DNA of 64,000 nucleotides from Eledone cirrhosa. Lineage: Eukaryota. Location of the stretch: positions 13,950,001 to 14,014,000 of the forward strand of contig OZ024744.1 of assembly GCA_964016885.1 (NCBI GenBank), in the 5' to 3' direction. The first letter of the stretch is position 1. The number at the start of each line of letters is the position of its first letter. The translations under genes were made by a program, and so were the position numbers. The notes below the pieces were generated by a model. It searched no databases. It saw only the letters and a program-made list of their open reading frames with translations, and was not told the DNA's origin. This document shows, piece after piece, positions 1-55,522 of the stretch.

Positions 1-3000
1 TGTCTCAGTAGATCAGAGTGTCACTCCAGTTAAACCCACTCTCTAAATTGAGAGATCACAACTCCCATACTATGGACATGTGGTTAGAATGTCTCTGTAG
101 ATCAGAGAGTCACTCCAGTTAAAGCTACTCTCTAAATTGAGAGATAACAACTCCCATAGTATGGACATGTGGTTAGAATGTCTCAGTAGATCATAGAGTC
201 ACTCCAGTTAAAGCCACTCTCTAAATTGAGAGATCACAACTCCTATACTATGGACATGGGGTTAGAATGTCTCAGTAGATCAGAGAGTCACTCCAGTTAA
301 AGCTTCTCTATAAATTGAGAGATTACAACTCCAATACTATGGACATGTGGTTAGAATGTCTCAGTAGATTAGAGAGTCACTCCAGTTAAAGCCACTCTCT
401 AAATTGAGAGATCACAACTCCAATACTATGGACATGTGGTTAGAATGTCTCAGTAGATCAGAGTGACACTCCAGTTAAAGCCACTCTCTAAATTGAGAGA
501 TCATAACTTCCATACTATGGTCATGTGGTTAGAATGTCTCAGTAGATCAGAGTGTCACTCCAGTTAAAGCTAATCTCTAAATTGAGAGATCACAACTCCA
601 ATACTATGGACATGGGGTTTGAATGTCTCAGTAGATCAGAGAGTCACTTCAGTTAAAGCTACTCTCTAAATTGAGAGATCACAACTCCAATACTATGGAC
701 ATGGGGTTTGAAAGTCTCAGTAGATCAGAGTGTCACTCCAGTTAAAGCTACTCTCTAAATTGAGAGATTACAACTCCAATACTATGGACATGTGGTTAGA
801 ATGTCTCAGTAGATTAGAGAGTCACTCCAGTTAAAGCCACTCTCTAAATTGAGAGATCACAACTCCAATACTATGGACATGTGGTTAGAATGTCTTAGTA
901 GATCAGAGTGTCACTCCAGTTAAAGCCACTCTCTAAATTGAGAGATCATAACTTCCATACTATGGACATGTGGTTAGAATGTCTCAGTAGATCAGAGATT
1001 CACTCCAGTTAAAGCCACTCTCTAAATTGAGAGCTCACAACTCCAATACTATGGTCATGTGGTTAGAATGTCTCAGTAGATCAGAGAGTCACTCCAGTTA
1101 AAGCCACTCTCTAAATTGAGAGATCACAACTCCAATACTATGGACATGGGGTTTGAATGTCTCAGTACATCAGAGTGTCACTCCAGTTAAAGCCACTCTC
1201 TAAATTGAGAGATCACAACTCCAATACTATGGTCATGTGGTTAGAATGTCTCAGAAGATCAGAGAGTCACTCCAGTTAAAGCCACTCTCTAAATTGAGAG
1301 ATCACAACTCCCATACTATGGACATGTGGGTATAATGTCTCAGTAGATCAGAGAGTCACTCCAGTTAAAGCCACTAATTCTCTAAATTGAGAGATCACAA
1401 CTCCCATACTATGGACATGTGGTTAGAATGTCTCAGTAGATCAGGGACTCACTCCAGTTAAAGCCACTCTCTAAATTGAGAGATCACAACTCCAATACTA
1501 TGGACATGGGGTTTGAATGTCTCAGTAGATCAGATTGTCACTCCAGTTAAACCCACTCTCTAAATTGAGAGATCACAACTCCCATACTATGGAGATGTGG
1601 TTAGAATGTCTCTGTAGATCAGAGAGTCACTCCAATTAAAGCTACTCTCTAAATTGAGAGATAACAACTCCCATAGTATGGACATGTGGTTAGAATGTCT
1701 CAGTAGATCATAGAGTCACTCCAGTTAAAGCCACTCTCTAAATTGAGAGATCACAACTCCTATACTATGGACATGGGGTTAGAATGTCTCAGTAGATCAG
1801 AGAGTCACTCCAGTTAAAGCTTCTCTCTAAATTGAGAGATTACAACTCCAATACTATGGACATGTGGTTAGAATGTCTCAGTAGATTAGAGAGTCACTCC
1901 AGTTAAAGCCACTCTCTAAATTGAGAGATCACAACTCCAATACTATGGACATGTGGTTAGAATGTCTCAGTAGATCAGAGTGACACTCCAGTTAAAGCCA
2001 CTCTCTAAATTGAGAGATCATAACTTCCATACTATGGTCATGTGGTTAGAATGTCTCAGTAGATCAGAGTGTCACTCCAGTTAAAGCGAATCTCTAAATT
2101 GAGAGATCACAACTCCAATACTATGGACATGGGGTTTGAATGTCTCAGTAGATCAGAGTGTCACTCCAGTTAAAGCTACTCTCTAAATTGAGAGATCACA
2201 ACTCCAATACTATGGACATGGGGTTTGAATGTCTCAGTAGATCAGAGAGTCACTTCAGTTAAAGCTACTCTCTAAATTGAGAGATCACAACTCCAATACT
2301 ATGGACATGGGGTTTGAAAGTCTCAGTAGATCAGAGTGTCACTCCAGTTAAAGCTACTCTCTAAATTGAGAGATTACAACTCCAATACTATGGACATGTG
2401 GTTAGAATGTCTCAGTAGATTAGAGAGTCACTCCAGTTAAAGCCACTCTCTAAATTGAGAGATCACAACTCCAATACTATGGACATGTGGTTAGAATGTC
2501 TCAGTAGATCAGAGTGTCACTCCAGTTAAAGCCACTCTCTAAATTGAGAGATCATAACTTCCATACTATGGACATGTGGTTAGAATGTCTCAGTAGATCA
2601 GAGAATCACTCCAGTTAAAACTACTCTTTAAATTGAGAGATCACAACTCCTATACTATGGACATGGGTTAGAATGTCTCAGTAGATCAGAGAGTCACTCC
2701 AGTTAAAGCTACTCTCTAAATTGAGAGATCACAACTCCCATACTATGGACATGTGGTTAGAATGTCTCAGTAGATCAGAGAGTCATTCCAGTTAAAGCCA
2801 CTCTCTTAATTGAGAGATCACAACTCCCATACTATGGACGTGTGGTTAGAATGTCTCAGTAGATCAGAGAGTCACTCCAGTTAAAGCCACTCTCTAAATT
2901 CAGAGATCACAACTCCCATACTCTGGACGTGTGGTTAGAATGTCTCAGTACATCAGAGAATCACTCCAGTTAAAACTACTCTCTAAAGTGAGAGATCACA

Positions 3001-6000
3001 ACTCCCATACTATGGACATGTGGTTAGAATGTCTCAGTAGATCAGAGAGTCACTCCAGTTAAAGCTACTCTCTAAATTGAGAGATCACAACTCCCATACT
3101 ATGGACATGTGGTTAGAATGTCTCAGTAGATCAGAGAGTCACTCCAGTTAAAGCTACTCTCTAAATTGAGAGATCACAACTCCTATACTATGGACATGGG
3201 GTTAGAATGTCTCAGTAGATCAGAGTGTCACTCCAGTTAAAGCCACTCTCTAAATTGAGAGATCACAACTCTCATACTATGGACATGTGGTTAGAATGTC
3301 TCAGTAGATCAGAGAGTCACTCCAGTTAAAGCTACTCTCTAAATTGAGAGATCACAACTCCAATACTATGGACATGTGGTTAGAATGTCTCAGTAGATCA
3401 GAGAGTCATTCCAGTTAAAGCCACTCTCTAAATTGAGAGATCACAACTCCCGTACTATGGACGTGTGGTTAGAATGTCTCAGTAGATCAGAGAGTCACTC
3501 TTGTTAAAGCTACTCTCTAAATTGAGAGATCACAACTCCTATACTATGGACATGGGGTTAGAATGTCTCAGTAGATCAGAGTGTCACTCCAGTTAAAGCC
3601 ACTCTCTAAATTGAGAGATCACAACTCCCAAACTATGGACATGTCTTTAGAATGTCTCAGTAGATCAGAGAGTTACTCCAGTTAAAGCTACTCTCTAAAT
3701 TGAGAGATCACAACTCCAATACTATGGACATGGGGTTTGAATGTCTCAGTAGATCAGAGAGTCGCTCCAGTTAAAGCCACTCTCTAAATTGAGAGATCAC
3801 AACTCCAATACTATGGACATGTGGTTAGAATGTCTCAGTAGATCAGAGTGTCACTCCAGTTAAAGCTACTCTCTATATTGAGAGATCACAACTCCCATAC
3901 TATGGACATGTGGTTAGAATGTCTCAGTAGATTAGAGTGTCATTCCAGTTAAAGCTACTCTCTAAATTGAGAGATCACAACTCCAATAATATGGACATGG
4001 GGTTTGATTGTCTCTGTAGATCAGAGTGTCACTCCAGTTAAAGCTACTCTCTAAATTGAGAGGTCACAACTCCAATACTATGGACATGGGATTTGAAAGT
4101 CTCAGTAGATCAGAGTGTCACCCCAGTTAAAGCTACTCTCTAAATTGAGAGATTACAACTCCAATACTATGGACATGTGGTTAGAATGTCTCAGTAGATT
4201 AGAGAGTCACTCCAGTTAAAGCCACTCTCTAAATTGAGAGATCACAACTCCAATACTATGGACATGTGGTTAGAATGTCTCAGTAGATCAGAGTTTCACT
4301 CCAGTTAAAGCTACTCTCTAAATTGAGAGATCACAACTCCAATACTATGGACATGGTGTTTGAATGTCTCAGTAGATCAATGAGTCGCTCAAGTTAAAGC
4401 CACTCTCTAAATTGAGAGATCACAACTCCAATACTATGGACATGTGGTTAGAATGTCTCAGTAGATCAGAGTGTCACTCCAGTTAAAGCTACTCTCTATA
4501 TTGAGAGATCACAACTCCCATACTATGGACATGTGGTTAGAATGTCTCAGTAGATTAGAGTGTCATTCCAGTTAAAGCTACTCTCTAAATTGAGAGATCA
4601 CAACTCCCATACTATTGACATGTGGGTAGAATGTCTCAGTAGATCAGAGAGTCACTCCAGTTAAAGCCACTAATTCTCTAAATTGAGAGATCACAACTCC
4701 CATACTATGGACATATGGTTAGTATGTCTCAGTAGATCAGAGAGTCACTCCAGTTAAAGCCACTCTGTAAATTGACAGATCACAACTTCTATACTATGGA
4801 CATGTGGTTAGAATGTATCAGTAGATCAAAGAGTTACTCCAGTTAAAGCTACTCTCTAAATTCAGAGATCACAACTCCAATACTATGGACATGGGGTTTG
4901 ATTGTCTCAGTAGATCAGAGTGTCACTCCAGTTAAAGCTACTCTCTAAATTGAGAGGTCACAACTCCAATACTATGGACATGGGATTTGAAAGTCTCAGT
5001 AGATCAGAGTGTCACCCCAGTTAAAGCTACTCTCTAAATTGAGAGATTACAACTCCAATTCTATGGACATGTGGTTAGAATGTCTCAGTAGATTAGAGAG
5101 TCACTCCAGTTAAAGCCACTCTCTAAATTGAGAGATCACAACTCCAATACTATGGACATGTGGTTAGAATGTCTCAGTAGATCAGAGTTTCACTCCAGTT
5201 AAAGCTAATCTCTAAATTGAGAGATCACAACTCCAATACTATGGACATGGGGTTTGAATGTCTCAGTAGATCAGAGTGTCACTCCAGTTAAAGCTACTCT
5301 CTAAATTTAGAGATCACAACTCGAATACTATGGACATGGGGTTTGAATGTCTCAGTAGATCAGAGTGTCACTTCAGTTAAAGCTACTCTCTAAATTGAGA
5401 GATCACAACTCCAATACTATGGACATGGTGTTTGAAAGTCTCAGTAGATCAGAGTGTCACTCCAGTTAAAGCTACTCTCTAAATTGAGAGATTACAACTC
5501 CAATACTATGGACATGTGGTTAGAATGTCTCAGTAGATTAGAGAGTCACTCCAGTTAAAGCCACTCTCTAAATTGAGAGATCACAACTCCAATACTATGG
5601 ACATGTGGTTAGAATGTCTCAGTAGATCAGAGTGTCACTCCAGTTAAAGCCACTCTCTAAATTGAGAGATCATAACTTCCATACTATGGACATGTGGTTA
5701 GAATGTCTCAGTAGATCAGAGAGTCACTCCAGTTAAAGCCACTCTCTAAATTGAGAGATCACAACTCCAATACTATGGACATGGGGTCTGAAAGTCTCAG
5801 TACATCAGAGTGTCACTCCAGTTAAAGTTACTCTCTAAATTGAGAGATCACAACTCCAATACTATGGACATGGGGTTTGAATGTCTCAGTAGATCAGAGA
5901 ATCACTCCAGTTAAAGCTACTCTCTAAATTGAGAGATCACAACCCCAATACTATGGACATGGGGTTTGAAAGTCTCAGTAGATCAGAGTGTCACTCCAGT

Positions 6001-9000
6001 TAAAGCTATTCTCTAAATTGAGAGATTACAACTCCAATACTATGGACATGGGGTTTGAATGTCTCAGTAGATCAGAGAGTCACTCCAGTTAAAGCTACTC
6101 TCTAAATTGAGAGATCACAACTCCAATACTATGGACATGGGGTTTGAAAGTCTCAGTAGATCAGAGTGTCACTCCAGTTAAAGCTACTCTCTAAATTGAG
6201 AGATTACAACTCCAATACTATGGACATGGGGTTTGAAAGTCTCAGTAGATCAGAGTGTCACTCCAGTTAAAGCTACTCTCTAAATTGAGAGATTACAACT
6301 CCAATACTATGGACATGTGGTTAGAATGTCTCAGTAGATTAGAGAGTCACTCCAGTTAAAGCCACTCTCTAAATTGAGAGATCACAACTCCAATACTATG
6401 GACATGTGATTAGAATGTCTCAGTAGATTATAGAGTCACTCCAGTTAAAGCCACTCTCTAAATTGAGAGATCACAACTCCAATACTATGGACATGTGGTT
6501 AGAAAGTCTCAGTAGATCAGAGTGTCACTCCAGTTAAAGCTAATCTCTAAATTGAGAGATCACAACTCCAATACTATGGACATGGGGTTTGAATGTCTCA
6601 GTAGATCAGAGTGTCACTCCAGTTAAAGCTACTCTCTAAATTGAGAGATCACAACTCCAATACTATGGACATGGGGTTTGAATGTCTCAGTAGATCAGCG
6701 AGTCACTTCAGTTAAAGCTACTCTCTAAATTGAGAGATCACAACTCCAATACTATGGACATGGGGTTTGAAAGTTTCAGTAGATCAGAGTGTCACTCCAG
6801 TTAAAGCTACTCTCTAAATTGAGAGATTACAACTCCAATACTATGGACATGTGGTTAGAATGTCTTAGTAGATCAGAGTGTCACTCCAGTTAAAGCCACT
6901 CTCTAAATTGAGAGATCATAACTTCCATACTATGGACATGTGGTTAGAATGTCTCAGTAGATCAGAGATTCACTCCAGTTAAAGCCACTCTCTAAATTGA
7001 GAGCTCACAACTCCAATACTATGGTCATGTGGTTAGAATGTCTCAGTAGATCAGAGAGTCACTCCAGTTAAAGCCACTCTCTAAATTGAGAGATCACAAC
7101 TCCAATACTATGGACATGGGGTTTGAATGTCTCAGTACATCAGAGTGTCACTCCAGTTAAAGCCACTCTCTAAATTGAGAGATCACAACTCCAATACTAT
7201 GGTCATGTGGTTAGAATGTCTCAGAAGATCAGAGAGTCACTCCAGTTAAAGCCACTCTCTAAATTGAGAGATCACAACTCCCATACTATGGACATGTGGG
7301 TATAATGTCTCAGTAGATCAGAGAGTCACTCCAGTTAAAGCCACTAATTCTCTAAATTGAGAGATCACAACTCCCATACTATGGACATGTGGTTAGAATG
7401 TCTCAGTAGATCAGAGACTCACTCCAGTTAAAGCCACTCTCTAAATTGAGAGATCACAACTCCAATACTATGGACATGGGGTTTGAATGTCTCAGTAGAT
7501 CAGAGTGTCACTCCAGTTAAACCCACTCTCTAAATTGAGAGATCACAACTCCCATACTATGGACATGTGGTTAGAATGTCTCTGTAGATCAGAGAGTCAC
7601 TCCAGTTAAAGCTACTCTCTAAATTGAGAGATAACAACTCCCATAGTATGGACATGTGGTTAGAATGTCTCAGTAGATCATAGAGTCACTCCAGTTAAAG
7701 CCACTCTCTAAATTGAGAGATCACAACTCCTATACTATGGACATGGGGTTAGAATGTCTCAGTAGATCAGAGAGTCACTCCAGTTAAAGCTTCTCTCTAA
7801 ATTGAGAGATCACAACTCCCATACTATGGACATGTGGTTAGAACGTCTCAGTAGATCAGAGAGTCACTTCAGTTAAAGCCACTCTCTAAATTGAGAGATC
7901 ACAACTCCCATACTATGGACATGTGGTTAGAATGTCTCAGTAGATCAGAGTGTCACTCCAGTTAAAGCTACTCTCTATATTGAGAGATCACAACTCCCAT
8001 ACTATGGACATGTGGTTAGAATGTCTCAGTAGATTAGAGTGTCATTCCAGTTAAAGCTACTCTCTAAATTGAGAGATCACAACTCCCATACTATTGACAT
8101 GTGGGTAGAACGTCTCAGTAGATCAGAGAGTCACTCCAGTTAAAGCCACTAATTCTCTAAATTGAGAGATCACAACTCCCATACTATGGACATATGGTTA
8201 GCATGTCTCAGTAGATCAGAGAGTCACTCCAGTTAAAGCCACTCTGTAAATTGACAGATCACAACTTCTATACTATGGACATGTGGTTAGAATGTCTCAG
8301 TAGATCAGAGAGTTACTCCAGTTAAAGCTACACTCTAAATTGAGAGATCACAACTCCAATACTATGGACATGTGGTTAGAATGTCTCAGTAGATTAGAGA
8401 GTCACTCCAGTTAAAGCCACTCTCTAAATTGAGAGATCACAACTCCAATACTATGGACATGTGATTAGAATGTCTCAGTAGATTATAGAGTCACTCCAGT
8501 TAAAGCCACTCTCTAAATTGAGAGATAACAACTCCAATACTATGGACATGTGGTTAGAAAGTCTCAGTAGATCAGAGTGTCACTCCAGTTAAAGCTAATC
8601 TCTAAATTGAGAGATCACAACTCCAATACTATGGACATGGGGTTTGAATGTCTCAGTAGATCAGAGTGTCACTCCAGTTAAAGCTACTCTCTAAATTGAG
8701 AGATTACAACTCCAATACTATGGACATGTGGTTAGAATGTCTCAGTAGATTAGAGAGTCACTCCAGTTAAAGCCACTCTCTAAATTGAGAGATTACAACT
8801 CCAATACTATGGACATGTGGTTAGAATGTCTCAGTAGATTAGAGAGTCACTCCAGTTAAAGCCACTCTCTAAATTGAGAGATCACAACTCCAATACTATG
8901 GACATGTGGTTAGAATGTCTTAGTAGATCAGAGTGTCACTCCAGTTAAAGCCACTCTCTAAATTGAGAGATCATAGCTTCCATACTATGGACATGTGGTT

Positions 9001-12000
9001 AGAATGTCTCAGTAGATCAGAGATTCACTCCAGTTAAAGCCACTCTCTAAATTGAGAGCTCACAACTCCAATACTATGGTCATGTGGTTAGAATGTCTCA
9101 GTAGATCAGAGAGTCACTCCAGTTAAAGCCACTCTCTAAATTGAGAGATCACAACTCCAATACTATGGACATGGGGTTTGAATGTCTCAGTACATCAGAG
9201 TGTCACTCCAGTTAAAGCCACTCTCTAAATTGAGAGATCACAACTCCAATACTATGGTCATGTGGTTAGAATGTCTCAGAAGATCAGAGAGTCACTCCAG
9301 TTAAAGCCACTCTCTAAATTGAGAGATCACAACTCCCATACTATGGACATGTGGGTATAATGTCTCAGTAGATCAGAGAGTCACTCCAGTTAAAGCCACT
9401 AATTCTCTAAATTGAGAGATCACAACTCCCATACTATGGACATGTGGTTAGAATGTCTCAGTAGATCAGGGACTCACTCCAGTTAAAGCCACTCTCTAAA
9501 TTGAGAGATCACAACTCCAATACTATGGACATGGGGTTTGAATGTCTCAGTAGATCAGAGTGTCACTCCAGTTAAACCCACTCTCTAAATTGAGAGATCA
9601 CAACTCCCATACTATGGAGATGTGGTTAGAATGTCTCTGTAGATCAGAGAGTCACTCCAATTAAAGCTACTCTCTAAATTGAGAGATAACAACTCCCATA
9701 GTATGGACATGTGGTTAGAATGTCTCAGTAGATCATAGAGTCACTCCAGTTAAAGCCACTCTCTAAATTGAGAGATCACAACTCCTATACTATGGACATG
9801 GGGTTAGAATGTCTCAGTAGATCAGAGAGTCACTCCAGTTAAAGCTTCTCTCTAAATTGAGAGATTACAACTCCAATACTATGGACATGTGGTTAGAATG
9901 TCTCAGTAGATTAGAGAGTCACTCCAGTTAAAGCCACTCTCTAAATTGAGAGATCACAACTCCAATACTATGGACATGTGGTTAGAATGTCTCAGTAGAT
10001 CAGAGTGACACTCCAGTTAAAGCCACTCTCTAAATTGAGAGATCATAACTTCCATACTATGGTCATGTGGTTAGAATGTCTCAGTAGATCAGAGTGTCAC
10101 TCCAGTTAAAGCGAATCTCTAAATTGAGAGATCACAACTCCAATACTATGGACATGGGGTTTGAATGTCTCAGTAGATCAGAGTGTCACTCCAGTTAAAG
10201 CTACTCTCTAAATTGAGAGATCACAACTCCAATACTATGGACATGGGGTTTGAATGTCTCAGTAGATCAGAGAGTCACTTCAGTTAAAGCTACTCTCTAA
10301 ATTGAGAGATCACAACTCCAATACTATGGACATGGTGTTTGAAAGTCTCAGTAGATCAGAGTGTCACTCCAGTTAAAGCTACTCTCTAAATTGAGAGATT
10401 ACAACTCCAATACTATGGACATGTGGTTAGAATGTCTCAGTAGATTAGAGAGTCACTCCAGTTAAAGCCACTCTCTAAATTGAGAGATCACAACTCCAAT
10501 ACTATGGACATGTGGTTAGAATGTCTCAGTAGATCAGAGTGTCACTCCAGTTAAAGCCACTCTCTAAATTGAGAGATCATAACTTCCATACTATGGACAT
10601 GTGGTTAGAATGTCTCAGTAGATCAGAGAATCACTCCAGTTAAAACTACTCTTTAAATTGAGAGATCACAACTCCTATACTATGGACATGGGTTAGAATG
10701 TCTCAGTAGATCAGAGTGTCACTCCAGTTAAAGCCACTCTCTAAATTGAGAGATCACAACTCCAATACTATGGACATGGGGTTTGAATGTCTCAGTAGAT
10801 CAGAGAGTCACTCCAGTTAAAGCTACTCTCTAAATTGAGAGATCACAACTCCCATACTATGGACATGTGGTTAGAATGTCTCAGTAGATCAGAGAGTCAT
10901 TCCAGTTAAAGCCACTCTCTTAATTGAGAGATCACAACTCCCATACTATGGACGTGTGGTTAGAATGTCTCAGTAGATCAGAGAGTCACTCCAGTTAAAG
11001 CCACTCTCTAAATTCAGAGATCACAACTCCCATACTCTGGACGTGTGGTTAGAATGTCTCAGTACATCAGAGAATCACTCCAGTTAAAACTACTCTCTAA
11101 AGTGAGAGATCACAACTCCCATACTATGGACATGTGGTTAGAATGTCTCAGTAGATCAGAGAGTCACTCCAGTTAAAGCTACTCTCTAAATTGAGAGATC
11201 ACAACTCCCATACTATGGACATGTGGTTAGAATGTCTCAGTAGATCAGAGAGTCACTCCAGTTAAAGCTACTCTCTAAATTGAGAGATCACAACTCCTAT
11301 ACTATGGACATGGGGTTAGAATGTCTCAGTAGATCAGAGTGTCACTCCAGTTAAAGCCACTCTCTAAATTGAGAGATCACAACTCTCATACTATGGACAT
11401 GTGGTTAGAATGTCTCAGTAGATCAGAGAGTCACTCCAGTTAAAGCTACTCTCTAAATTGAGAGATCACAACTCCAATACTATGGACATGTGGTTAGAAT
11501 GTCTCAGTAGATCAGAGAGTCATTCCAGTTAAAGCCACTCTCTAAATTGAGAGATCACAACTCCCGTACTATGGACGTGTGGTTAGAATGTCTCAGTAGA
11601 TCAGAGAGTCACTCTTGTTAAAGCTACTCTCTAAATTGAGAGATCACAACTCCTATACTATGGACATGGGGTTAGAATGTCTCAGTAGATCAGAGTGTCA
11701 CTCCAGTTAAAGCCACTCTCTAAATTGAGAGATCACAACTCCCAAACTATGGACATGTCTTTAGAATGTCTCAGTAGATCAGAGAGTTACTCCAGTTAAA
11801 GCTACTCTCTAAATTGAGAGATCACAACTCCAATACTATGGACATGGGGTTTGAATGTCTCAGTAGATCAGAGAGTCGCTCCAGTTAAAGCCACTCTCTA
11901 AATTGAGAGATCACAACTCCAATACTATGGACATGTGGTTAGAATGTCTCAGTAGATCAGAGTGTCACTCCAGTTAAAGCTACTCTCTATATTGAGAGAT

Positions 12001-24000: not shown

Positions 24001-27000
24001 AGATCAGAGTGTCACTCCAGTTAAAGCTACTCTCTAAATTGAGAGATTACAACTCCAATATTATGGACATGTAGTTAGAATGTCTCAGTAGATTAGAGAG
24101 TCACTCCAGTTAAAGCCACTCTCTAAATTGAGAGTTCACAACTCCAATACTATGGACATGTGGTTAGAATGTCTCAGTAGATCAGAGTGTCACTCCAGTT
24201 AAAGCCACTCTCTAAATTGAGAGATCATAACTTCCATACTATGGACATGTGGTTAGAATGTCTCAGTAGATCAGAGAGTCACTCCAGTTAAAGCCACTCA
24301 CTAAATTGAGAGATCACAACTCCAATACTATGGACATGGGGTCTGAAAGTCTCAGTACATCAGAGTGTCACTCCAGTTAAAGTTACTCTCTAAATTGAGA
24401 GATCACAACTCCAATACTTTGGACATGGGGTTTGAATGTCTCAGTAGATCAGAGAATCACTCCAGTTAAAGCTACTCTCTAAATTGAGAGATCACAACCC
24501 CAATACTATGGACATGGGGTTTGAAAGTCTCAGTAGATCAGAGTGTCACTCCAGTTAAAGCTATTCTCTAAATTGAGAGATTACAACTCCAATACTATGG
24601 ACATGGGATTTGAATGTCTCAGTAGATCAGAGAGTCACTCCAGTTAAGGCTACTCTCTAAATTGAGAGATCACAACTCCAATACTATGGACATGGGGTTT
24701 GAAAGTCTCAGTAGATCAGAGTGTCACTCCAGTTAAAGCTACTCTCTAAATTGAGAGATTACAACTCCAATACTATGGACATGGGGTTTGAAAGTCTCAG
24801 TAGATCAGAGTGTCACTCCAGTTAAAGCTACTCTCTAAATTGAGAGATTACAACTCCAATACTATGGACATGTGGTTAGAATGTCTCAGTAGATTAGAGA
24901 GTCACTCCAGTTAAAGCCACTCTCTAAATTGAGAGATCACAACTCCAATACTATGGACATGTGATTAGAATGTCTCAGTAGATTATAGAGTCACTCCAGT
25001 TAAAGCCACTCTCTAAATTGAGAGATCACAACTCCAATACTATGGACATGTGGTTAGAAAGTCTCAGTAGATCAGAGTGTCACTCCAGTTAAAGCTAATC
25101 TCTAAATTGAGAGATTACAACTCCAATACTATGGACATGGGGTTTGAATGTCTCAGTAGATCAGAGTGTCACTCCAGTTAAAGCTACTCTCTAAATTGAG
25201 AGATCACAACTCCAATACTATGGACATGGGGTTTGAATGTCTCAGTAGATCAGAGAGTCACTTCAGTTAAAGCTACTCTCTAAATTGAGAGATCACAACT
25301 CCAATACTATGGACATGGGGTTTGAAAGTCTCAGTAGATCAGAGTGTCACTCCAGTTAAAGCTACTCTCTAAATTGAGAGATTACAACTCCAATACTATG
25401 GACATGTGGTTAGAATGTCTCAGTAGATTAGAGAGTCACTCCAGTTAAAGCCACTCTCTAAATTGAGAGATCACAACTCCAATACTATGGACATGTGGTT
25501 AGAATGTCTTAATAGATCAGAGTGTCACTCCAGTTAAAGCCACTCTCTAAATTGAGAGATCATAACTTCCATACTATGGACATGTGGTTAGAATGTCTCA
25601 GTAGATCAGAGATTCACTCCAGTTAAAGCCACTCTCTAAATTGAGAGCTCACAACTCCAATACTATGGTCATGTGGTTAGAATGTCTCAGTAGATCAGAG
25701 AGTCACTCCAGTTAAAGCCACTCTCTAAATTGAGAGATCACAACTCCAATACTATGGACATGGGGTTTGAATGTCTCAGTACATCAGAGTGTCACTCCAG
25801 TTAAAGCCACTCTCTAAATTGAGAGATCACAACTCCAATACTATGGTCATGTGGTTAGAATGTCTCAGAAGATCAGAGAGTCACTCCAGTTAAAGCCACT
25901 CTCTAAATTGAGAGATCACAACTCCCATACTATGGACATGTGGGTATAATGTCTCAGTAGATCAGAGAGTCACTCCAGTTAAAGCCACTAATTCTCTAAA
26001 TTGAGAGATCACAACTCCCATACTATGGACATGTGGTTAGAATGTCTCAGTAGATCAGAGACTCACTCCAGTTAAAGCCACCCTCTAAATTGAGAGATCA
26101 CAACTCCAATACTATGGACATGGGGTTTGAATGTCTCAGTAGATCAGAGTGTCACTCCAGTTAAACCCACTCTCTAAATTGAGAGATCACAACTCCCATA
26201 CTATGGACATGTGGTTAGAATGTCTCTGTAGATCAGAGAGTCACTCCAGTTAAAGCTACTCTCTAAATTGAGAGATAACAACTCCCATAGTATGGACATG
26301 TGGTTAGAATGTCTCAGTAGATCATAGAGTCACTCCAGTTAAAGCCACTCTCTAAATTGAGAGATCACAACTCCTATACTATGGACATGGGGTTAGAATG
26401 TCTCAGTAGATCAGAGAGTCACTCCAGTTAAAGCTTCTCTCTAAATTGAGAGATCACAACTCCCATACTATGGACATGTGGTTAGAACGTCTCAGTAGAT
26501 CAGAGAGTCACTTCAGTTAAAGCCACTCTCTAAATTGAGAGATCACAACTCGCATACTATGGACATGTGGTTAGAATGTCTCAGTAGATCAGAGTGTCAC
26601 TCCAGTTAAAGCTACTCTCTATATTGAGAGATCACAACTCCCATACTATGGACATGTGGTTAGAATGTCTCAGTAGATTAGAGTGTCATTCCAGTTAAAG
26701 CTACTCTCTAAATTGAGAGATCACAACTCCCATACTATTGACATGTGGGTAGAACGTCTCAGTAGATCAGAGAGTCACTCCAGTTAAAGCCACTAATTCT
26801 CTAAATTGAGAGATCACAACTCCCATACTATGGACATATGGTTAGTATGTCTCAGTAGATCAGAGAGTCACTCCAGTTAAAGCCACTCTGTAAATTGACA
26901 GATCACAACTTCTATACTATGGACATGTGGTTAGAATGTCTCAGTAGATCAGAGAGTTACTCCAGTTAAAGCTACACTCTAAATTGAGAGATCACAACTC

Positions 27001-30000
27001 CAATACTATGGACATGTGGTTAGAATGTCTCAGTAGATTAGAGAGTCACTCCAGTTAAAGCCACTCTCTAAATTGAGAGATCACAACTCCAATACTATGG
27101 ACATGTGATTAGAATGTCTCAGTAGATTATAGAGTCACTCCAGTTAAAGCCACTCTCTAAATTGAGAGATCACAACTCCAATACTATGGACATGTGGTTA
27201 GAAAGTCTCAGTAGATCAGAGTGTCACTCCAGTTAAAGCTAATCTCTAAATTGAGAGATCACAACTCCAATACTATGGACATGGGGTTTGAATGTCTCAG
27301 TAGATCAGAGTGTCACTCCAGTTAAAGCTACTCTCTAAATTGAGAGATCACAACTCCAATACTATGGACATGGGGTTTGAATGTCTCAGTAGATCAGAGA
27401 GTCACTTCAGTTAAAGCTACTCTCTAAATTGAGAGATCACAACTCCAATACTATGGACATGGGGTTTGAAAGTCTCAGTAGATCAGAGTGTCACTCCAGT
27501 TAAAGCTACTCTCTAAATTGAGAGATTACAACTCCAATACTATGGACATGTGGTTAGAATGTCTCAGTAGATTAGAGAGTCACTCCAGTTAAAGCCACTC
27601 TCTAAATTGAGAGATCACAACTCCAATACTATGGACATGTGGTTAGAATGTCTTAGTAGATCAGAGTGTCACTCCAGTTAAAGCCACTCTCTAAATTGAG
27701 AGATCATAACTTCCATACTATGGACATGTGGTTAGAATGTCTCAGTAGATCAGAGATTCACTCCAGTTAAAGCCACTCTCTAAATTGAGAGCTCACAACT
27801 CCAATACTATGGTCATGTGGTTAGAATGTCTCAGTAGATCAGAGAGTCACTCCAGTTAAAGCCACTCTCTAAATTGAGAGATCACAACTCCAATACTATG
27901 GACATGGGGTTTGAATGTCTCAGTACATCAGAGTGTCACTCCAGTTAAAGCCACTCTCTAAATTGAGAGATCACAACTCCAATACTATGGTCATGTGGTT
28001 AGAATGTCTCAGAAGATCAGAGAGTCACTCCAGTTAAAGCCACTCTCTAAATTGAGAGATCACAACTCCCATACTATGGACATGTGGGTATAATGTCTCA
28101 GTAGATCAGAGAGTCACTCCAGTTAAAGCCACTAATTCTCTAAATTGAGAGATCACAACTCCCATACTATGGACATGTGGTTAGAATGTCTCAGTAGATC
28201 AGAGACTCACTCCAGTTAAAGCCACTCTCTAAATTGAGAGATCACAACTCCAATACTATGGACATGGGGTTTGAATGTCTCAGTAGATCAGAGTGTCACT
28301 CCAGTTAAACCCACTCTCTAAATTGAGAGATCACAACTCCCATACTATGGACATGTGGTTAGAATGTCTCTGTAGATCAGAGAGTCACTCCAGTTAAAGC
28401 TTCTCTCTAAATTGAGAGATCACAACTCCCATACTATGGACATGTGGTTAGAACGTCTCAGTAGATCAGAGAGTCACTTCAGTTAAAGCCACTCTCTAAA
28501 TTGAGAGATCACAACTCCCATACTATGGACATGTGGTTAGAATGTCTCAGTAGATCAGAGTGTCACTCCAGTTAAAGCTACTCTCTATATTGAGAGATCA
28601 CAACTCCCATACTATGGACATGTGGTTAGAATGTCTCAGTAGATTAGAGTGTCATTCCAGTTAAAGCCACTCTGTAAATTGACAGATCACAACTTCTATA
28701 CTATGGACATGTGGTTAGAATGTCTCAGTAGATCAGAGAGTTACTCCAGTTAAAGCTACACTCTAAATTGAGAGATCACAACTCCAATACTATGGACATG
28801 GGGTTTGATTGTCTCAGTAGATCAGAGTGTCACTCCAGTTAAAGCTACTCTCTAAATTGAGAGGTCACAACTCCAATACTATGGACATGGGATTTGAAAG
28901 TCTCAGTAGATCAGAGTGTCACCCCAGTTAAAGCGACTCTCTAAATTGAGAGATTACAACTCCAATACTATGGACATGGGGTTTGAAAGTCTCAGTAGAT
29001 CAGAGTGTCACTCCAGGTAAAGCTACTCTCTAAATTGAGAGATTACAACTCCAATACTATGGACATGTGGTTAGAATGTCTCAGTAGATTAGAGAGTCAC
29101 TCCAGTTAAAGCCACTCTCTAAATTGAGAGATCACAACTCCAATACTATGGACATGTGATTAGAATGTCTCAGTAGATTATAGAGTCACTCCAGTTAAAG
29201 CCACTCTCTAAATTGAGAGATCACAACTCCAATACTATGGACATGTGGTTAGAAAGTCTCAGTAGATCAGAGTGTCACTCCAGTTAAAGCTAATCTCTAA
29301 ATTGAGAGATCACAACTCCAATACTATGGACATGGGGTTTGAATGTCTCAGTAGATCAGAGTGTCACTCCAGTTAAAGCTACTCTCTAAATTGAGAGATC
29401 ACAACTCCAATACTATGGACATGGGGTTTGAATGTCTCAGTAGATCAGAGAGTCACTTCAGTTAAAGCTACTCTCTAAATTGAGAGATCACAACTCCAAT
29501 ACTATGGACATGGGGTTTGAAAGTCTCAGTAGATCAGAGTGTCACTCCAGTTAAAGCTACTCTCTAAATTGAGAGATTACAACTCCAATACTATGGACAT
29601 GTGGTTAGAATGTCTCAGTAGATCAGAGTGTCACTCCAGTTAAAGCTACTCTCTATATTGAGAGATCACAACTCCCATACTATGGACATGTGGTTAGAAT
29701 GTCTCAGTAGATTAGAGTGTCATTCCAGTTAAAGCTACTCTCTAAATTGAGAGATCACAACTCCCATACTATTGACATGTGGGTAGAATGTCTCAGTAGA
29801 TCAGAGAGTCACTCCAGTTAAAGCCACTCTGTAAATTGACAGATCACAACTTCCATACTATGGACATGTGGTTAGAATGTCTCAGTAGATCAGAGAGTTA
29901 CTCCAGTTAAAGCTACTCTCTAAATTGAGAGATCACAACTCCAATAATATGGACATGGGGTTTGATTGTCTCTGTAGATCAGAGTGTCACTCCAGTTAAA

Positions 30001-33000
30001 GCTACTCTCTAAATTGAGAGGTCACAACTCCAATACTATGGACATGGGATTTGAAAGTCTCAGTAGATCAGAGTGTCACCCCAGTTAAAGCTACTCTCTA
30101 AATTGAGAGATTACAACTCCAATACTATGGACATGTGGTTAGAATGTCTCAGTAGATTAGAGAGTCACTCCAGTTAAAGCCACTCTCTAAATTGAGAGAT
30201 CACAACTCCAATACTATGGACATGTGGTTAGAATGTCTCAGTAGATCAGAGTTTCACTCCAGTTAAAGCTACTCTCTAAATTGAGAGATCACAACTCCAA
30301 TACTATGGACATGGTGTTTGAATGTCTCAGTAGATCAATGAGTCGCTCAAGTTAAAGCCACTCTCTAAATTGAGAGATCACAACTCCAATACTATGGACA
30401 TGTGGTTAGAATGTCTCAGTAGATCAGAGTGTCACTCCAGTTAAAGCTACTCTCTATATTGAGAGATCACAACTCCCATACTATGGACATGTGGTTAGAA
30501 TGTCTCAGTAGATTAGAGTGTCATTCCAGTTAAAGCTACTCTCTAAATTGAGAGATCACAACTCCCATACTATTGACATGTGGGTAGAATGTCTCAGTAG
30601 ATCAGAGAGTCACTCCAGTTAAAGCCACTAATTCTCTAAATTGAGAGATCACAACTCCCATACTATGGACATATGGTTAGTATGTCTCAGTAGATCAGAG
30701 AGTCACTCCAGTTAAAGCCACTCTGTAAATTGACAGATCACAACTTCTATACTATGGACATGTGGTTAGAATGTCTCAGTAGATCAAAGAGTTACTCCAG
30801 TTAAAGCTACTCTCTAAATTGAGAGATCACAACTCCAATACTATGGACATGGGGTTTGATTGTCTCAGTAGATCAGAGTGTCACTCCAGTTAAAGCTACT
30901 CTCTAAATTGAGAGGTCACAACTCCAATACTATGGACATGGGATTTGAAAGTCTCAGTAGATCAGAGTGTCACCCCAGTTAAAGCTACTCTCTAAATTGA
31001 GAGATTACAACTCCAATTCTATGGACATGTGGTTAGAATGTCTCAGTAGATTAGAGAGTCACTCCAGTTAAAGCCACTCTCTAAATTGAGAGATCACAAC
31101 TCCAATACTATGGACATGTGGTTAGAATGTCTCAGTAGATCAGAGTTTCACTCCAGTTAAAGCTAATCTCTAAATTGAGAGATCACAACTCCAATACTAT
31201 GGACATGGGGTTTGAATGTCTCAGTAGATCAGAGTGTCACTCCAGTTAAAGCTACTCTCTAAATTGAGAGATCACAACTCGAATACTATGGACATGGGGT
31301 TTGAATGTCTCAGTAGATCAGAGTGTCACTTCAGTTAAAGCTACTCTCTAAATTGAGAGATCACAACTCCAATACTATGGACATGGTGTTTGAAAGTCTC
31401 AGTAGATCAGAGTGTCACTCCAGTTAAAGCTACTCTCTAAATTGAGAGATTACAACTCCAATATTATGGACATGTAGTTAGAATGTCTCAGTAGATTAGA
31501 GAGTCACTCCAGTTAAAGCCACTCTCTAAATTGAGAGTTCACAACTCCAATACTATGGACATGTGGTTAGAATGTCTCAGTAGATCAGAGTGTCACTCCA
31601 GTTAAAGCCACTCTCTAAATTGAGAGATCATAACTTCCATACTATGGACATGTGGTTAGAATGTCTCAGTAGATCAGAGAGTCACTCCAGTTAAAGCCAC
31701 TCACTAAATTGAGAGATCACAACTCCAATACTATGGACATGGGGTCTGAAAGTCTCAGTACATCAGAGTGTCACTCCAGTTAAAGTTACTCTCTAAATTG
31801 AGAGATCACAACTCCAATACTTTGGACATGGGGTTTGAATGTCTCAGTAGATCAGAGAATCACTCCAGTTAAAGCTACTCTCTAAATTGAGAGATCACAA
31901 CCCCAATACTATGGACATGGGGTTTGAAAGTCTCAGTAGATCAGAGTGTCACTCCAGTTAAAGCTATTCTCTAAATTGAGAGATTACAACTCCAATACTA
32001 TGGACATGGGATTTGAATGTCTCAGTAGATCAGAGAGTCACTCCAGTTAAGGCTACTCTCTAAATTGAGAGATCACAACTCCAATACTATGGACATGGGG
32101 TTTGAAAGTCTCAGTAGATCAGAGTGTCACTCCAGTTAAAGCTACTCTCTAAATTGAGAGATTACAACTCCAATACTATGGACATGGGGTTTGAAAGTCT
32201 CAGTAGATCAGAGTGTCACTCCAGTTAAAGCTACTCTCTAAATTGAGAGATTACAACTCCAATACTATGGACATGTGGTTAGAATGTCTCAGTAGATTAG
32301 AGAGTCACTCCAGTTAAAGCCACTCTCTAAATTGAGAGATCACAACTCCAATACTATGGACATGTGATTAGAATGTCTCAGTAGATTATAGAGTCACTCC
32401 AGTTAAAGCCACTCTCTAAATTGAGAGATCACAACTCCAATACTATGGACATGTGGTTAGAAAGTCTCAGTAGATCAGAGTGTCACTCCAGTTAAAGCTA
32501 ATCTCTAAATTGAGAGATTACAACTCCAATACTATGGACATGGGGTTTGAATGTCTCAGTAGATCAGAGTGTCACTCCAGTTAAAGCTACTCTCTAAATT
32601 GAGAGATCACAACTCCAATACTATGGACATGGGGTTTGAATGTCTCAGTAGATCAGAGAGTCACTTCAGTTAAAGCTACTCTCTAAATTGAGAGATCACA
32701 ACTCCAATACTATGGACATGGGGTTTGAAAGTCTCAGTAGATCAGAGTGTCACTCCAGTTAAAGCTACTCTCTAAATTGAGAGATTACAACTCCAATACT
32801 ATGGACATGTGGTTAGAATGTCTCAGTAGATTAGAGAGTCACTCCAGTTAAAGCCACTCTCTAAATTGAGAGATCACAACTCCAATACTATGGACATGTG
32901 GTTAGAATGTCTTAATAGATCAGAGTGTCACTCCAGTTAAAGCCACTCTCTAAATTGAGAGATCATAACTTCCATACTATGGACATGTGGTTAGAATGTC

Positions 33001-36000
33001 TCAGTAGATCAGAGATTCACTCCAGTTAAAGCCACTCTCTAAATTGAGAGCTCACAACTCCAATACTATGGTCATGTGGTTAGAATGTCTCAGTAGATCA
33101 GAGAGTCACTCCAGTTAAAGCCACTCTCTAAATTGAGAGATCACAACTCCAATACTATGGACATGGGGTTTGAATGTCTCAGTACATCAGAGTGTCACTC
33201 CAGTTAAAGCCACTCTCTAAATTGAGAGATCACAACTCCAATACTATGGTCATGTGGTTAGAATGTCTCAGAAGATCAGAGAGTCACTCCAGTTAAAGCC
33301 ACTCTCTAAATTGAGAGATCACAACTCCCATACTATGGACATGTGGGTATAATGTCTCAGTAGATCAGAGAGTCACTCCAGTTAAAGCCACTAATTCTCT
33401 AAATTGAGAGATCACAACTCCCATACTATGGACATGTGGTTAGAATGTCTCAGTAGATCAGAGACTCACTCCAGTTAAAGCCACCCTCTAAATTGAGAGA
33501 TCACAACTCCAATACTATGGACATGGGGTTTGAATGTCTCAGTAGATCAGAGTGTCACTCCAGTTAAACCCACTCTCTAAATTGAGAGATCACAACTCCC
33601 ATACTATGGACATGTGGTTAGAATGTCTCTGTAGATCAGAGAGTCACTCCAGTTAAAGCTACTCTCTAAATTGAGAGATAACAACTCCCATAGTATGGAC
33701 ATGTGGTTAGAATGTCTCAGTAGATCATAGAGTCACTCCAGTTAAAGCCACTCTCTAAATTGAGAGATCACAACTCCTATACTATGGACATGGGGTTAGA
33801 ATGTCTCAGTAGATCAGAGAGTCACTCCAGTTAAAGCTTCTCTCTAAATTGAGAGATCACAACTCCCATACTATGGACATGTGGTTAGAACGTCTCAGTA
33901 GATCAGAGAGTCACTTCAGTTAAAGCCACTCTCTAAATTGAGAGATCACAACTCCCATACTATGGACATGTGGTTAGAATGTCTCAGTAGATCAGAGTGT
34001 CACTCCAGTTAAAGCTACTCTCTATATTGAGAGATCACAACTCCCATACTATGGACATGTGGTTAGAATGTCTCAGTAGATTAGAGTGTCATTCCAGTTA
34101 AAGCTACTCTCTAAATTGAGAGATCACAACTCCCATACTATTGACATGTGGGTAGAACGTCTCAGTAGATCAGAGAGTCACTCCAGTTAAAGCCACTAAT
34201 TCTCTAAATTGAGAGATCACAACTCCCATACTATGGACATATGGTTAGTATGTCTCAGTAGATCAGAGAGTCACTCCAGTTAAAGCCACTCTGTAAATTG
34301 ACAGATCACAACTTCTATACTATGGACATGTGGTTAGAATGTCTCAGTAGATCAGAGAGTTACTCCAGTTAAAGCTACACTCTAAATTGAGAGATCACAA
34401 CTCCAATACTATGGACATGGGGTTTGATTGTCTCAGTAGATCAGAGTGTCACTCCAGTTAAAGCTACTCTCTAAATTGAGAGGTCACAACTCCAATACTA
34501 TGGACATGGGATTTGAAAGTCTCAGTAGATCAGAGTGTCACCCCAGTTAAAGCTACTCTCTAAATTGAGAGATTACAACTCCAATACTATGGACATGTGG
34601 TTAGAATGTCTCATTAGATTAGAGAGTCACTCCAGTTAAAGCCACTCTCTAAGTTGAGAGATCACAACTCCAATACTATGGACATGTGGTTAGAATGTCT
34701 CAGTAGATCAGAGTTTCACTCCAGTTAAAGCTAATCTCTAAATTGAGAGATCACAACTCCAATACTATGGACATGGGGTTTGAATGTCTCAGTAGATCAG
34801 AGTGTCACTCCAGTTAAAGCTACTCTCTAAATTGAGAGATCACAACTCCAATACTATGGACATGGGGTTTGAATGTCTCAGTAGATCAGAGAGTCACTTC
34901 AGTTAAAGCTACTCTCTAAATTGAGAGATCACAACTCCAATACTATGGACATGGGGTTTGAAAGTCTCAGTAGATCAGAGTGTCACTCCAGTTAAAGCTA
35001 CTCTCTAAATTGAGAGATTACAACTCCAATACTATGGACATGTGGTTAGAATGTCTCAGTAGATTAGAGAGTCACTCCAGTTAAAGCCACTCTCTAAATT
35101 GAGAGATCACAACTCCAATACTATGGACATGTGGTTAGAATGTCTCAGTAGATCAGAGTGTCACTCCAGTTAAAGCCACTCTCTAAATTGAGAGATCATA
35201 ACTTCCATACTATGGACATGTGGTTAGAATGTCTCAGTAGATCAGAGAGTCACTCCAGTTAAAGCCACTCTCTAAATTGAGAGATCACAACTCCAATACT
35301 ATGGACATGGGGTCTGAATGTCTCAGTAGATCAGAGAATCACTCCAGTTAAAGCTACTCTCTAAATTGAGAGATCACAACCCCAATACTATGGACATGGG
35401 GTTTGAAAGTCTCAGTAGATCAGAGTGTCACTCCAGTTAAAGCTATTCTCTAAATTGAGAGATTACAACTCCAATACTATGGACATGGGGTTTGAATGTC
35501 TCAGTAGATCAGAGAGTCACTCCAGTTAAAGCTACTCTCTAAATTGAGAGATCACAACTCCAATACTATGGACATGGGGTTTGAAAGTCTCAGTAGATCA
35601 GAGTGTCACTCCAGTTAAAGCTACTCTCTAAATTGAGAGATTACAACTCCAATACTATGGACATGGGGTTTGAAAGTCTCAGTAGATCAGAGTGTCACTC
35701 CAGTTAAAGCTACTCTGTAAATTGAGAGATTACAACTCCAATACTATGGACATGTGGTTAGAATGTCTCAGTAGATTAGAGAGTCACTCCAGTTAAAGCC
35801 ACTCTCTAAATTGAGAGATCACAACTCCAATACTATGGACATGTGATTAGAATGTCTCAGTAGATTAGAGAGTCACTCCAGTTAAAGCCACTCTCTAAAT
35901 TGAGAGATCACAACTCCAATACTATGGACATGTGGTTAGAAAGTCTCAGTAGATCAGAGTGTCACTCCAGTTAAAGCTAATCTCTAAATTGAGAGATCAC

Positions 36001-37195
36001 AACTCCAATACTATGGACATGGGGTTTGAATGTCTCAGTAGATCAGAGATTCACTCCAGTTAAAGCCACTCTCTAAATTGAGAGATCACAACTCCAATAC
36101 TATGGACATGGGGTTTGAATGTCTCAGTAGATCAGAGTGTCACTCCAGTTAAACCCACTCTCTAAATTGAGAGATCACAACTCCCATACTATGGACATGT
36201 GGTTAGAATGTCTCTGTAGATCAGAGAGTCACTCCAGTTAAAGCTACTCTCTAAATTGAGAGATAACAACTCCCATAGTATGGACATGTGGTTAGAATGT
36301 CTCAGTAGATCAGAGAGTCACTTCAGTTAAAGCCACTCTCTAAATTGAGAGATCACAACTCCCATACTATGGACATGTGGTTAGAATGTCTCAGTAGATC
36401 ATAGAGTCTCTCCAGTTAAAGCCACTCTCTAAATTGAGAGATCACAACTCCCATACTATGGACATGTGGTTAGAATGTCTCAGTAGATCAGAGAGTCACT
36501 CCAGTTGAAGCTACTCTCTAAATTGAGAGATCACAACTCCTATACTATGGACATGGGGTTAGAATGTCTCAGTAGATCAGAGAGTCACTCCAGTTAAAGC
36601 TTCTCTCTAAATTGAGAGATCACAACTCCCATACTATGGACATGTGGTTAGAATGTCTCAGTAGATCTGAGAGTCACTTCAGTTAAAGCCACTCTCTAAA
36701 TTGAGAGATCACAACTCCCATACTATGGACATGTGGTTAGAATGTCTCAGTAGATCAGAGAGTCACTCCAGTTAAAGCCTCTCTCTAAATTGAGAGATCA
36801 CAACTGCCATACTATGGACATGTGGTTAGAATGTCTCAGTAGATCAGAGTGTCAATCCAGTTAAAGCTACTCTCTAAATTGAGAGATCACAACTCCAATA
36901 CTATGGACATGTGGTTAGAATGTCTCAGTAGATCAGAGAGTCACTCCAGTTAAAGCCTCTCTCTAAATTGAGAGATCACAACTGCCATACTATGGACATG
37001 GGGTTTGAATGTCTCAGTAGATCAGAGTGTCACTCCAGTTAAAGCTACTCTCTAAATTGAGAGATCACAACTCCCATACTATGGACATGTGGTTAGAATG
37101 TCTCAGTAGATCAGAGTGTCACTCCAGTTAAAGCTACTCTCTAAATTGAGAGATCACAACTCCCATACTATGGACATGTGGTTAGAATGTCTCAG
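1..37195 (+). repeat. 89-bp satellite array (~417 copies, open at the window's left edge) with interspersed 93-bp variants
   Basis: Consensus TGTCTCAGTAGATCAGAGWGTCACTCCAGTTAAAGCYACTCTCTAAATTGAGAGATCACAACTCCMATACTATGGACATGTGGTTAGAA recurs with period 89 (starts at 1, 90, 179...). The last copy ends ...ATGTCTCAG at 37195. The 93-bp variant carries CCACTAATTCTCT (e.g. 1371, 7341, 12781, 21171). Confidence 0.99.
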
Positions 37196-37531
37196 GAAAG
37201 TACTGCTGGACAGATTTTACGGGTAAAACTAACCAATCGGGGTTGACTCCAAGCAACATGGTTGGATAACATCCACGGCTTGGGGATCTAGCCGGATCAG
37301 TTGGAGATGGTTGCCCTTGACAGGACCTGCTGGAAGGAGTGTTTGGGGACTCTGGCGCATTACTCTCTCTGGAAAGAAGAAGAAGAAGAAGGAGGAGGAG
37401 GAGGAGGAGAAGAAGAAGAAGAAGAAGAAGAAGAAGAAGAAGGAGAAGAAGAAGAAGAAGAAGAAGAAGAAGAGAAGAAGAAGAAGAAGAAGAAGAAGAA
37501 GAAGAAGAAGAAGAAGAAGAAGAAGAGAAGA
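37196..37531 (+). mobile_element. 3' end of an RTE-clade (Rex3/Expander-like) LINE with (GAA)n tail, degenerate
   Basis: Continues the last monomer in frame: IERSQLPYYGHVVRMSQ|ESTAGQILRVKLTNRG*LQATWLDNIHGLGI*PDQLEMVALDRTCWKECLG. This resembles the RTE C-terminal pattern IERSQLRW.GH..RM...RW.D...LGI...L..VA..R..W. It is followed by (GAA/GGA)n at ~37376-37531. Confidence 0.82.
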
Positions 37532-37620
37532 GCCAAAGCTGACGTTGGTTGGATTTGAACTCAGAATGTAAAAATACCAGAGTTGCATTTTATCCAACAC
37601 TTAACTCCATTCTGCCAGTA
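37532..37620 (+). mobile_element. SINE fragment (3' part)
   Basis: GCCAAAGCTGACGTTGGTTGGATTTGAACTCAGAATG aligns with GGCAAAGTTAACCTCGG.GGGATTTGAACTCAGAATG in the copies at 37.9 kb and 49.8 kb. Confidence 0.65.
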
Positions 37621-37829
37621 CATTTGTCTGTATCGCACCAAAATATTAATACGGAATGATTTGTAAGCAAGCACGTGTCTACGTGTTCAAACATCGTAGT
37701 TGAGGATTTCCTCCTGAATATCTGTGTTTTTGTACCTGGAATTGCCTCAACACTTCATTAGGGAAGAAACTACAAATATACACAACCAAGTTGGAATTGT
37801 CCTTCATTCAATATAAATAAATTATATGA

Positions 37830-38011
37830 TTGTTTTATTTCAGGCACAAGACCAGCAATTATACCAGTACATTACTGGTACTTTATTTTATCGACCCCCG
37901 TAGGGATGAAAGGCAAAGTTAACCTCGGCGTGATTTGAACTCTGAATGGCAAGGGCCGTAACTCTATGCGTCAAAGCGTCCGGCCCGCAACTGATACTGT
38001 CAATCCACCGC
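37830..38011 (+). mobile_element. SINE copy (family I recognise from cephalopod genomes)
   Basis: GGCACAAG.CCAGCAATT...ACTGGTACTTTATTTTATCGACCCC...GATGAAAGGCAAAGTTAACCTCGG..GATTTGAACTC, closely similar to the copy at 49754-49932. Confidence 0.8.
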
Positions 38012-38171
38012 ATAATGTATGTATGCATGGATCAGTAACTGACATACAGCGTTTCTAGGGTATTTCATTAAACGTGGTGGAGCATCTCCTCTCCAACACT
38101 GTATACAGCAGATTTCTCCCAGAAAAGGATAGAGAAGGAGAGAATGGAACTGAGAATGTGATATAAAGGAA

Positions 38172-38302: not shown

Positions 38303-38303
38303 A

Positions 38304-55520: not shown

Positions 55521-55522
55521 TT

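Follow-up and report, generated by a model that had tools for sequence, protein, structure and literature searches.

A megabase satellite from the coding end of a Rex3/RTE-type LINE in Eledone cirrhosa, whose units probably spread between old LINE copies

The start of satellites and their arrival at further sites are open questions, since an old array no longer shows its origin. Satellites derived from ORF2 (the second open reading frame) of long interspersed elements (LINEs) have been listed, namely PROsat in Phodopus, chicken HinfI/CR1, seal Pvc 20 and the cetacean common satellite from the L1 3' end (PMC9659126 and PMC6947457, available text). The satellites of squamates that stem from short interspersed elements (SINEs), called sSats, are homogeneous, which was ascribed to concerted evolution; a test of regional clustering or of unrelated host tails does not appear in the available text of PMC10702118. 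For Rsp-like in Drosophila simulans and D. mauritiana, which spread into pre-existing 1.688 clusters, interlocus conversion or re-integration of circles was proposed (PMC7403614, available text). Human tandem repeats that arose out of transposable elements showed no genomic hotspots, and their initiation was explained for only 6% of cases, as far as the available part of PMC3389668 goes. Here we describe a window of 64,000 nucleotides from the 3.0-Gb genome of Eledone cirrhosa, positions 13,950,001-14,014,000 of contig OZ024744.1 (C28), which contains the right-hand end of a satellite, array A, joined to the 3' end of a LINE. The unit of this satellite is LINE coding sequence. Such units probably spread between old LINE copies by ectopic conversion and then expanded locally.

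Window positions 1-37195 (plus strand) are a tandem array with a Tandem Repeats Finder period of 89, 417.1 copies and 92% matches. An earlier note, made from the letters of the window, had spoken of a satellite of more than 37 kb. The tandem array stands, but its true size is 1,133,681 bp (C28:12,853,515 to 13,987,195; about 12,700 units), since it reaches 1.096 Mb further upstream and the window holds only its right-hand 37 kb. Forty stretches of array A, together 333,195 bp or 29% of it, were sampled, and the satellite was found in all 40 with 4.3-5.8% divergence from the majority unit. Among the 416 complete units in the window, a length of 89 bp is found in 395 (95%), of 93 bp in 19 and of 88 bp in 2. 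The 93-bp variant, as at 1336-1428 (plus strand), does read as 31 codons of the LINE reading-frame end, as had been claimed, but it accounts for just 4.6% of the window units. According to alignment with dispersed LINE copies, 93 bp is the ancestral length and the 89-mer is the 93-mer minus 4 bp.

Megabase arrays are hard to assemble, 29% of this one was sampled and no contig examined spans its right joint whole. That its size or joints are assembly artefacts is nevertheless hardly credible, as the units are diverse and structured by position (445 distinct among 1,524 contiguous units), many short arrays share the same anatomy, raw reads of two other individuals contain the 89-bp junction in abundance (2,103 and 764 reads), and a single short-read contig, possibly from the source individual, covers the left edge completely. 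The array A junction is also present in three contigs of a second organism. Within the array there are irregular higher-order blocks, the commonest lags between identical units being 83 and 91 units. A regular higher-order repeat was considered and rejected, with only 6.5% identical units at the best lag over 137 kb. Secondary structure of the unit and segment was nothing special (z-scores 0.08-0.57). The simplest reading of the sequence is that array A would be non-coding heterochromatic DNA; it adjoins a 12.8-Mb satellite-rich block of C28, and given that block a putative centromeric role is possible.

By homology, the unit and the flank at 37196-37373 (plus strand) are consecutive parts of the reading-frame end of a decayed Rex3/RTE-type LINE, an origin that had been proposed before and is borne out by protein relatives, whose consecutive residues they match. 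The 93-bp unit matches 14 of the 15 such relatives listed (at best 70% identity over 30 aa, E = 2e-12), and in 7 of these the residues that follow are matched by the flank on its own. In one relative, the 93-bp unit corresponds to residues 953-982 (70%) and the flank goes on to residue 1043. The last unit (37108-37195, plus strand), which is of the derived 89-bp type, runs without a gap into the LINE 3' end. The passage into ESTAGQIL...WLDNIH...CWKECL had also been described as in frame, but only the second half of the last unit is in frame with the flank because this unit is an 89-mer. The (GAA)n tail, which the earlier note had also seen, lies at 37374-37531 (plus strand); it includes a short GGA stretch and is the expanded 3' repeat of the LINE. 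When LINE copies were searched with the last unit plus flank, the dispersed copies were 75-83% identical to this query, and most of them were colinear straight across the array/flank joint (best 40 of 3,555 candidates scored). Because of this colinearity, the sequence upstream of 37196 in dispersed copies is related to the unit; unrelated sequence there had been named in the earlier note as grounds for giving up the idea. Compared with the family majority, the flank has 27 differences in 176 aligned sites, two in-frame deletions of 9 and 15 bp and internal stops, and is thus decayed.

The LINE relatives are single open reading frames of about 1,000 aa with an endonuclease and a reverse transcriptase (RT). 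One of them, P0003 (1,047 aa), bears an AP endonuclease followed by RT, and its matches to genome copies L395 and L400 start at residue 9 or 28 and end at 971 or 1046. Both are about 80% identical to LINE copy L005, in which three of four stop-free stretches match RVT_1, one of them above the Pfam cut-off, and L400 also matches the last unit and tail of the window. All near genome copies found are broken, so we infer the single frame of the parent LINE from its relatives. The named relatives are mostly teleost RT proteins with about 60% identity. A by-eye comparison found the published Rex3 C-terminal pattern to be shared with GaRex3-a01 and the preceding Danio entry in Additional file 2 of PMC2887409, and the available text of that paper names target duplications of 6-12 bp and short 3' untranslated regions (UTRs) with simple repeats among the characteristics of RTE elements. 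The LINE described here has a very short 3' UTR that ends in simple repeats, (GAA)n in the window and GAA-type ends in dispersed copies. A Pfam search with 50-aa and 24-aa C-terminal pieces matched no family.

Tandems of this segment are not limited to array A. A strict pattern of two units followed by the tail gave 148 + 300 matches, of which 200 are the matches listed here and 248 are further ones, and at least 176 distinct LINE copies carry tandems of the segment on their own tails. A one-unit version of the pattern gave 3,912 matches, which means that roughly a tenth of the matching copies have a tandem. Five unit classes dominate (65, 93, 99, 111 and 123 bp), and each is present on many chromosomes. 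The junctions show microhomology of 1-3 nt. Self-similarity of the element at unit-length lags is not above that at other lags, and the repeated, independent birth of the same junction is therefore unlikely. Tandem loci, counted per Mb and not per LINE copy, lie more densely on small chromosomes, with 0.016/Mb on C1 and 0.29-0.34/Mb on C15 and C17.

Neighbouring loci tend to carry the same unit class. The set for this comparison was 114 loci on C1-C18, which are 123 loci minus 9 same-class neighbours that were merged within 100 kb, with one short-unit locus excluded. Neighbours no more than 2 Mb apart share their class in 26 of 43 pairs compared to an expected fraction of 0.277 (0 of 10,000 permutations). 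Units and tails were then compared at 57 tandem loci in 8 chromosome/unit groups, after L239 (a duplicate) and L283 (misaligned) had been dropped. The within-group unit distance is 0.072 versus 0.093 when permuted (0 of 2,000), while the within-group tail distance is 0.198 versus 0.197 (P = 0.63) and shared derived tail sites are at background (P = 0.32). On C25, ten arrays up to 8 Mb apart have array-majority cores that differ by 0.006 and tails that differ by 0.21. Single units on C25 differ by only 0.048, so this likeness is not an effect of taking majorities. In 27 single copies found with the same pattern, the core difference is 0.172 and the tail difference 0.203. A C25 diagnostic variant is dominant in 10 of 10 arrays and in none of the 27 singles. 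Array-majority core differences in other groups are 0.019 (C19), 0.022 (C18), 0.043 (C2), 0.057 (C8) and 0.068 (C15), and tail differences are 0.18-0.21 in all array groups. In a blind 400 kb of C25 without listed matches, four of six core-bearing copies had the local 65-bp tandem, compared to a tandem in 2 of 30 consecutive copies on C1 (Fisher P = 0.003). The simplest reading of these sequence comparisons is that exchange would have taken place between old, unrelated host copies.

Another explanation is that active source elements with in-frame duplications scattered two-unit copies by retrotransposition, after which local expansion followed and exchange between loci was secondary. The lengths 93, 99, 111 and 123 are all divisible by three, the frame is kept in 7 of 11 junction types and each class is on many chromosomes; several arrays start mid-unit, as expected from 5' truncation, and transposition of ready-made tandems has been proposed for LTR12 (PMC3389668, available text). 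We find this explanation improbable as the main route. The very common 65-bp class is out of frame, regional clustering is unexplained by retrotransposition, and tails of the same class lack shared derived sites. The C25 unit is 11.7% derived, and a source element that carried it should leave about 20 shared tail changes, yet the C25 units are nearly identical on tails without them. Retrotransposition may explain the first long-range seeding.

The ends of array A and a second array nearby bear on where its own units came from. Array B (locus L094) is an inverted array of 28 units, 357 kb to the right of array A. Exact junction matches number 4,913, and all 13 on the opposite strand lie within array B. 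The last-unit pattern has 19 matches, with the derived type at arrays A and B only, and the 89-bp lineage with a T at the junction is confined to their neighbourhood. At the left of array A, the edge is a unit boundary, and the leftmost unit is the most element-like of the array, being 93 bp long with the ancestral junction and 14/93 differences from the family, which is about the level of decay of the tail. Within the left 90 kb, 33-46% of the units are 93 bp long, against 0-9% in the rest of the array, and the ancestral junction base occurs in about 6-11%, solely within the left 50 kb. Since the derived lineage is local, the leftmost unit is element-like and 93-bp units are enriched on the left, the 89-bp, T-junction lineage likely matured and expanded at this locus. 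This gradient and the confined lineage also uphold the earlier view that the array grew in place.

Growth in place does not make the locus a unique birth site, as had been proposed. The same 93-bp junction was found at 9 other loci among the matches listed, on C1, C2, C5, C13, C19, C21 and C23, and their units are without the derived changes of array A, where seen. The suggested check of the left boundary also came out negative: there is no LINE sequence of the parent family within 20 kb upstream of the left edge, and no target duplication links the flanks of array A, the longest shared word being 5 letters and away from the edges. The missing target duplication weakens the idea of one intact insertion, but not the assignment to a LINE family. 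These results bear on the possibility that the 93-bp duplication was born de novo in this very copy, through slippage or unequal exchange at a 3-nt microhomology, with the tail as its parent and the junction elsewhere either recurrent or exported. The element-like leftmost unit, with its ancestral junction and tail-like decay, and the occurrence of the derived lineage solely at A and B would suit such a birth, and a short-repeat-mediated origin is a described route (PMC6947457, available text). We regard it as unlikely, given the identical junction without A's changes at the nine other loci, microhomology that is no better than chance, the lack of a target duplication connecting left edge and tail, and the secondary tail attachment seen in array B.

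Array B has the same derived units as array A on an unrelated tail. The last units differ at 3/88 positions and the tails at 40/161, which exceeds the 15% mean of dispersed LINE pairs. An array joined to an element tail is therefore no proof of parentage, and of the earlier idea that array A is a birth site still attached to its parent, what remains is that the lineage probably matured here; neither uniqueness nor the tail as proof is supported. The units of array B are a mixture of early and late array A variants, and array B retains no 5' part of its own. Four of its 28 units carry an element-type stretch that is absent from all 22 array A samples; these units are perhaps chimeras with the recipient copy. 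It could also be argued that a crossover between the oppositely oriented arrays caused an inversion that swapped their tails, so that the tail in the window would be the neighbor's. It is true that the two arrays, 357 kb apart, face one another and have units, though not tails, in common. Such an inversion is very improbable, though: cross pairings of the A and B flanks give nothing near the edges, the sole near-edge flank match is a 5-letter word that joins the left and right flanks of B itself, and the mixed variants of B and its lack of a 5' part also speak against it.

Taken together, these data favor ectopic conversion between old LINE copies followed by local expansion. The 65-, 93-, 99-, 111- and 123-bp duplication junctions would each have arisen rarely, at 1-3 nt of microhomology. 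Thousands of resident dead LINE copies share homology with the unit, so that a break in one of them could then be mended with a nearby array, or a circle released from it, as the template; the statistics behind this step are strong. Such repair would place the array inside the flanks that the recipient already had, and donor and recipient would mostly lie in one chromosome region. The tandem seed of array A was likely copied in from another LINE copy by homology-directed repair, and the array would have grown by unequal exchange inside an old, 5'-truncated LINE copy. There, a G-to-T change at the junction and the 4-bp deletion would have been fixed and the array would have expanded, with old 93-bp units persisting at its left end; the gradient is observed, and the history is what we infer from it. 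Array A would later have exported units into a second LINE copy 357 kb away, giving array B.

Several points weigh against this account. Homogenization is weak or absent in the C17 123-bp group (0.162) and the C6 99-bp group (0.149), which need an older spread or another route. In the C25 arrays even the first unit is the cluster variant, and no resident-type first unit was caught. The excess of in-frame junction types (7/11, P = 0.04) is likewise what a coding-source model predicts. The leftmost unit of array A has 4 of 11 satellite-derived states compared to 1-3 in 20 single copies, modest support for an origin of the lineage in this very LINE copy, which the earlier note would fit as well. 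We saw no conversion event and identified no donor for the array A seed. Also, the locus groups were picked from visible clusters among the matches listed, in one genome. Since two groups are little homogenized and 7 of 11 junctions are in frame, our account still allows coding source elements to have seeded units over long distances early on. A wider proposal, which we put forward tentatively and rate at somewhat under even chances, is that dead LINEs form a genome-wide docking network in which competing units sweep chromosome regions by conversion, take most local copies and occasionally reach megabases, with the same segment of the reading frame predisposed in two LINE families.

Two further candidates for the seeding of tandems were dropped. 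A pause of reverse transcription at the unit start was suggested by 5 of the 19 top BLAST matches ending there, but the 5' ends of 28 unselected singles were spread over element positions 399 to 1034. Exclusive use of this LINE segment was also rejected, because a downstream control word forms tandems too. The one control word tried gave 138 + 132 matches and about 14 loci listed on C1-C20. The core word, by comparison, has 123 loci on C1-C18 and gave 4,154 + 18,762 matches, large totals that are driven by a few big arrays.

Other arrays and copies were noted along the way. A second megabase array of the same LINE segment lies on the minus strand at C28:119.8-120.95 Mb (at least 1.15 Mb, 64-bp unit; satellite in 9 of 9 samples), and both megabase arrays are 13-17 Mb from contig ends. 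On C2, a 170-kb array (12,186,0xx-12,356,5xx) is built of the 93-bp unit, keeps the ancestral junction and is bordered by LINE sequence at either end. L110 and L111, 20 kb apart on C20, stem from one LINE copy by segmental duplication; two 123-bp units are present in one of them and a single unit in the other, and the difference is a unit gained or lost at the DNA level after insertion. At C28:121.1-121.3 Mb there is a 90-bp satellite of 30 nearly stop-free codons around an RWLGHVLR motif, which is apparently another LINE family's homologous reading-frame segment (E about 1e-5 by tblastn, 3e-3 for the reversed control).

The remainder of the window and of C28 contains other repeats. Right after the tail, a dispersed and abundant repeat, probably a SINE, is represented by fragments at 37532-37620 and 37805-38304; its 5' half is not at the left edge of array A. 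The minus strand carries a frameshifted pol of a long terminal repeat (LTR) retrotransposon at 52319-55640, with RT, RNase H and integrase, as well as RT-like and GIY-YIG-like open frames at 43743-45876 and 62564-63361 that have no Pfam match and that we take to resemble Penelope elements. The first 12.8 Mb of C28 are a mosaic of other satellites with periods 6, 23, 32, 35, 40, 45, 48 and 72; tandem arrays were present in 17 of 20 samples, and three units match many dispersed loci. C28 is 136.5 Mb long yet numbered after contigs of 22-30 Mb, and C16 is likewise out of size order. Judged by this numbering, C28 is possibly a separately named sex chromosome.

In this one genome every stage of a satellite is assembled, from singles, two-unit loci and kilobase arrays to the 170-kb array and two arrays of more than 1.1 Mb. 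The host flanks of each array serve as independent clocks, so conversion and retrotransposition can be told apart as routes of spread, and the reach of spread by conversion can be measured against Hi-C. The locus is also a warning that attachment of an array to an element tail does not prove its birthplace. No description of this repeat or of a regional takeover of LINE copies was found in the literature, with most subscription journals outside the search. The anatomy is known from the SINE-derived satellites of squamates; the coding origin, megabase size and evidence for local takeover were not found in the literature searched.

Among known systems, the squamate sSats (PMC10702118, available text) are the closest in anatomy. 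They too repeat an internal segment in tandem and close with a longer unit that reaches the element end, occur at many loci in several unit variants, and have units that are more alike between loci than their parents are. Their parent is a SINE and they reach about 1,200 units, in contrast to a LINE reading-frame end and about 12,700 units here. The satellite described here therefore works like an sSat but is not one, being derived from LINE coding sequence. The LINE ORF2-derived satellites (PMC9659126 and PMC6947457, available text) have in common with it a LINE-derived unit that comes partly from a reading frame; here the whole unit is reading frame, both array ends are assembled, and sizes from two units to a megabase are visible together. 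As in the human tandems derived from transposable elements, where parts of the element consensus are tandem-repeat hotspots (PMC3389668, available text), one part of the element is favored, but here unit types cluster by chromosome region. The closest mechanism is the spread of Rsp-like into 1.688 clusters (PMC7403614, available text). In both cases one microhomology junction is found at many loci, inside pre-existing host repeats. Unlike for Rsp-like, the docking sites here are dispersed dead LINE copies that are themselves homologous to the unit and lie on all chromosomes examined, and competing unit types dominate different regions.

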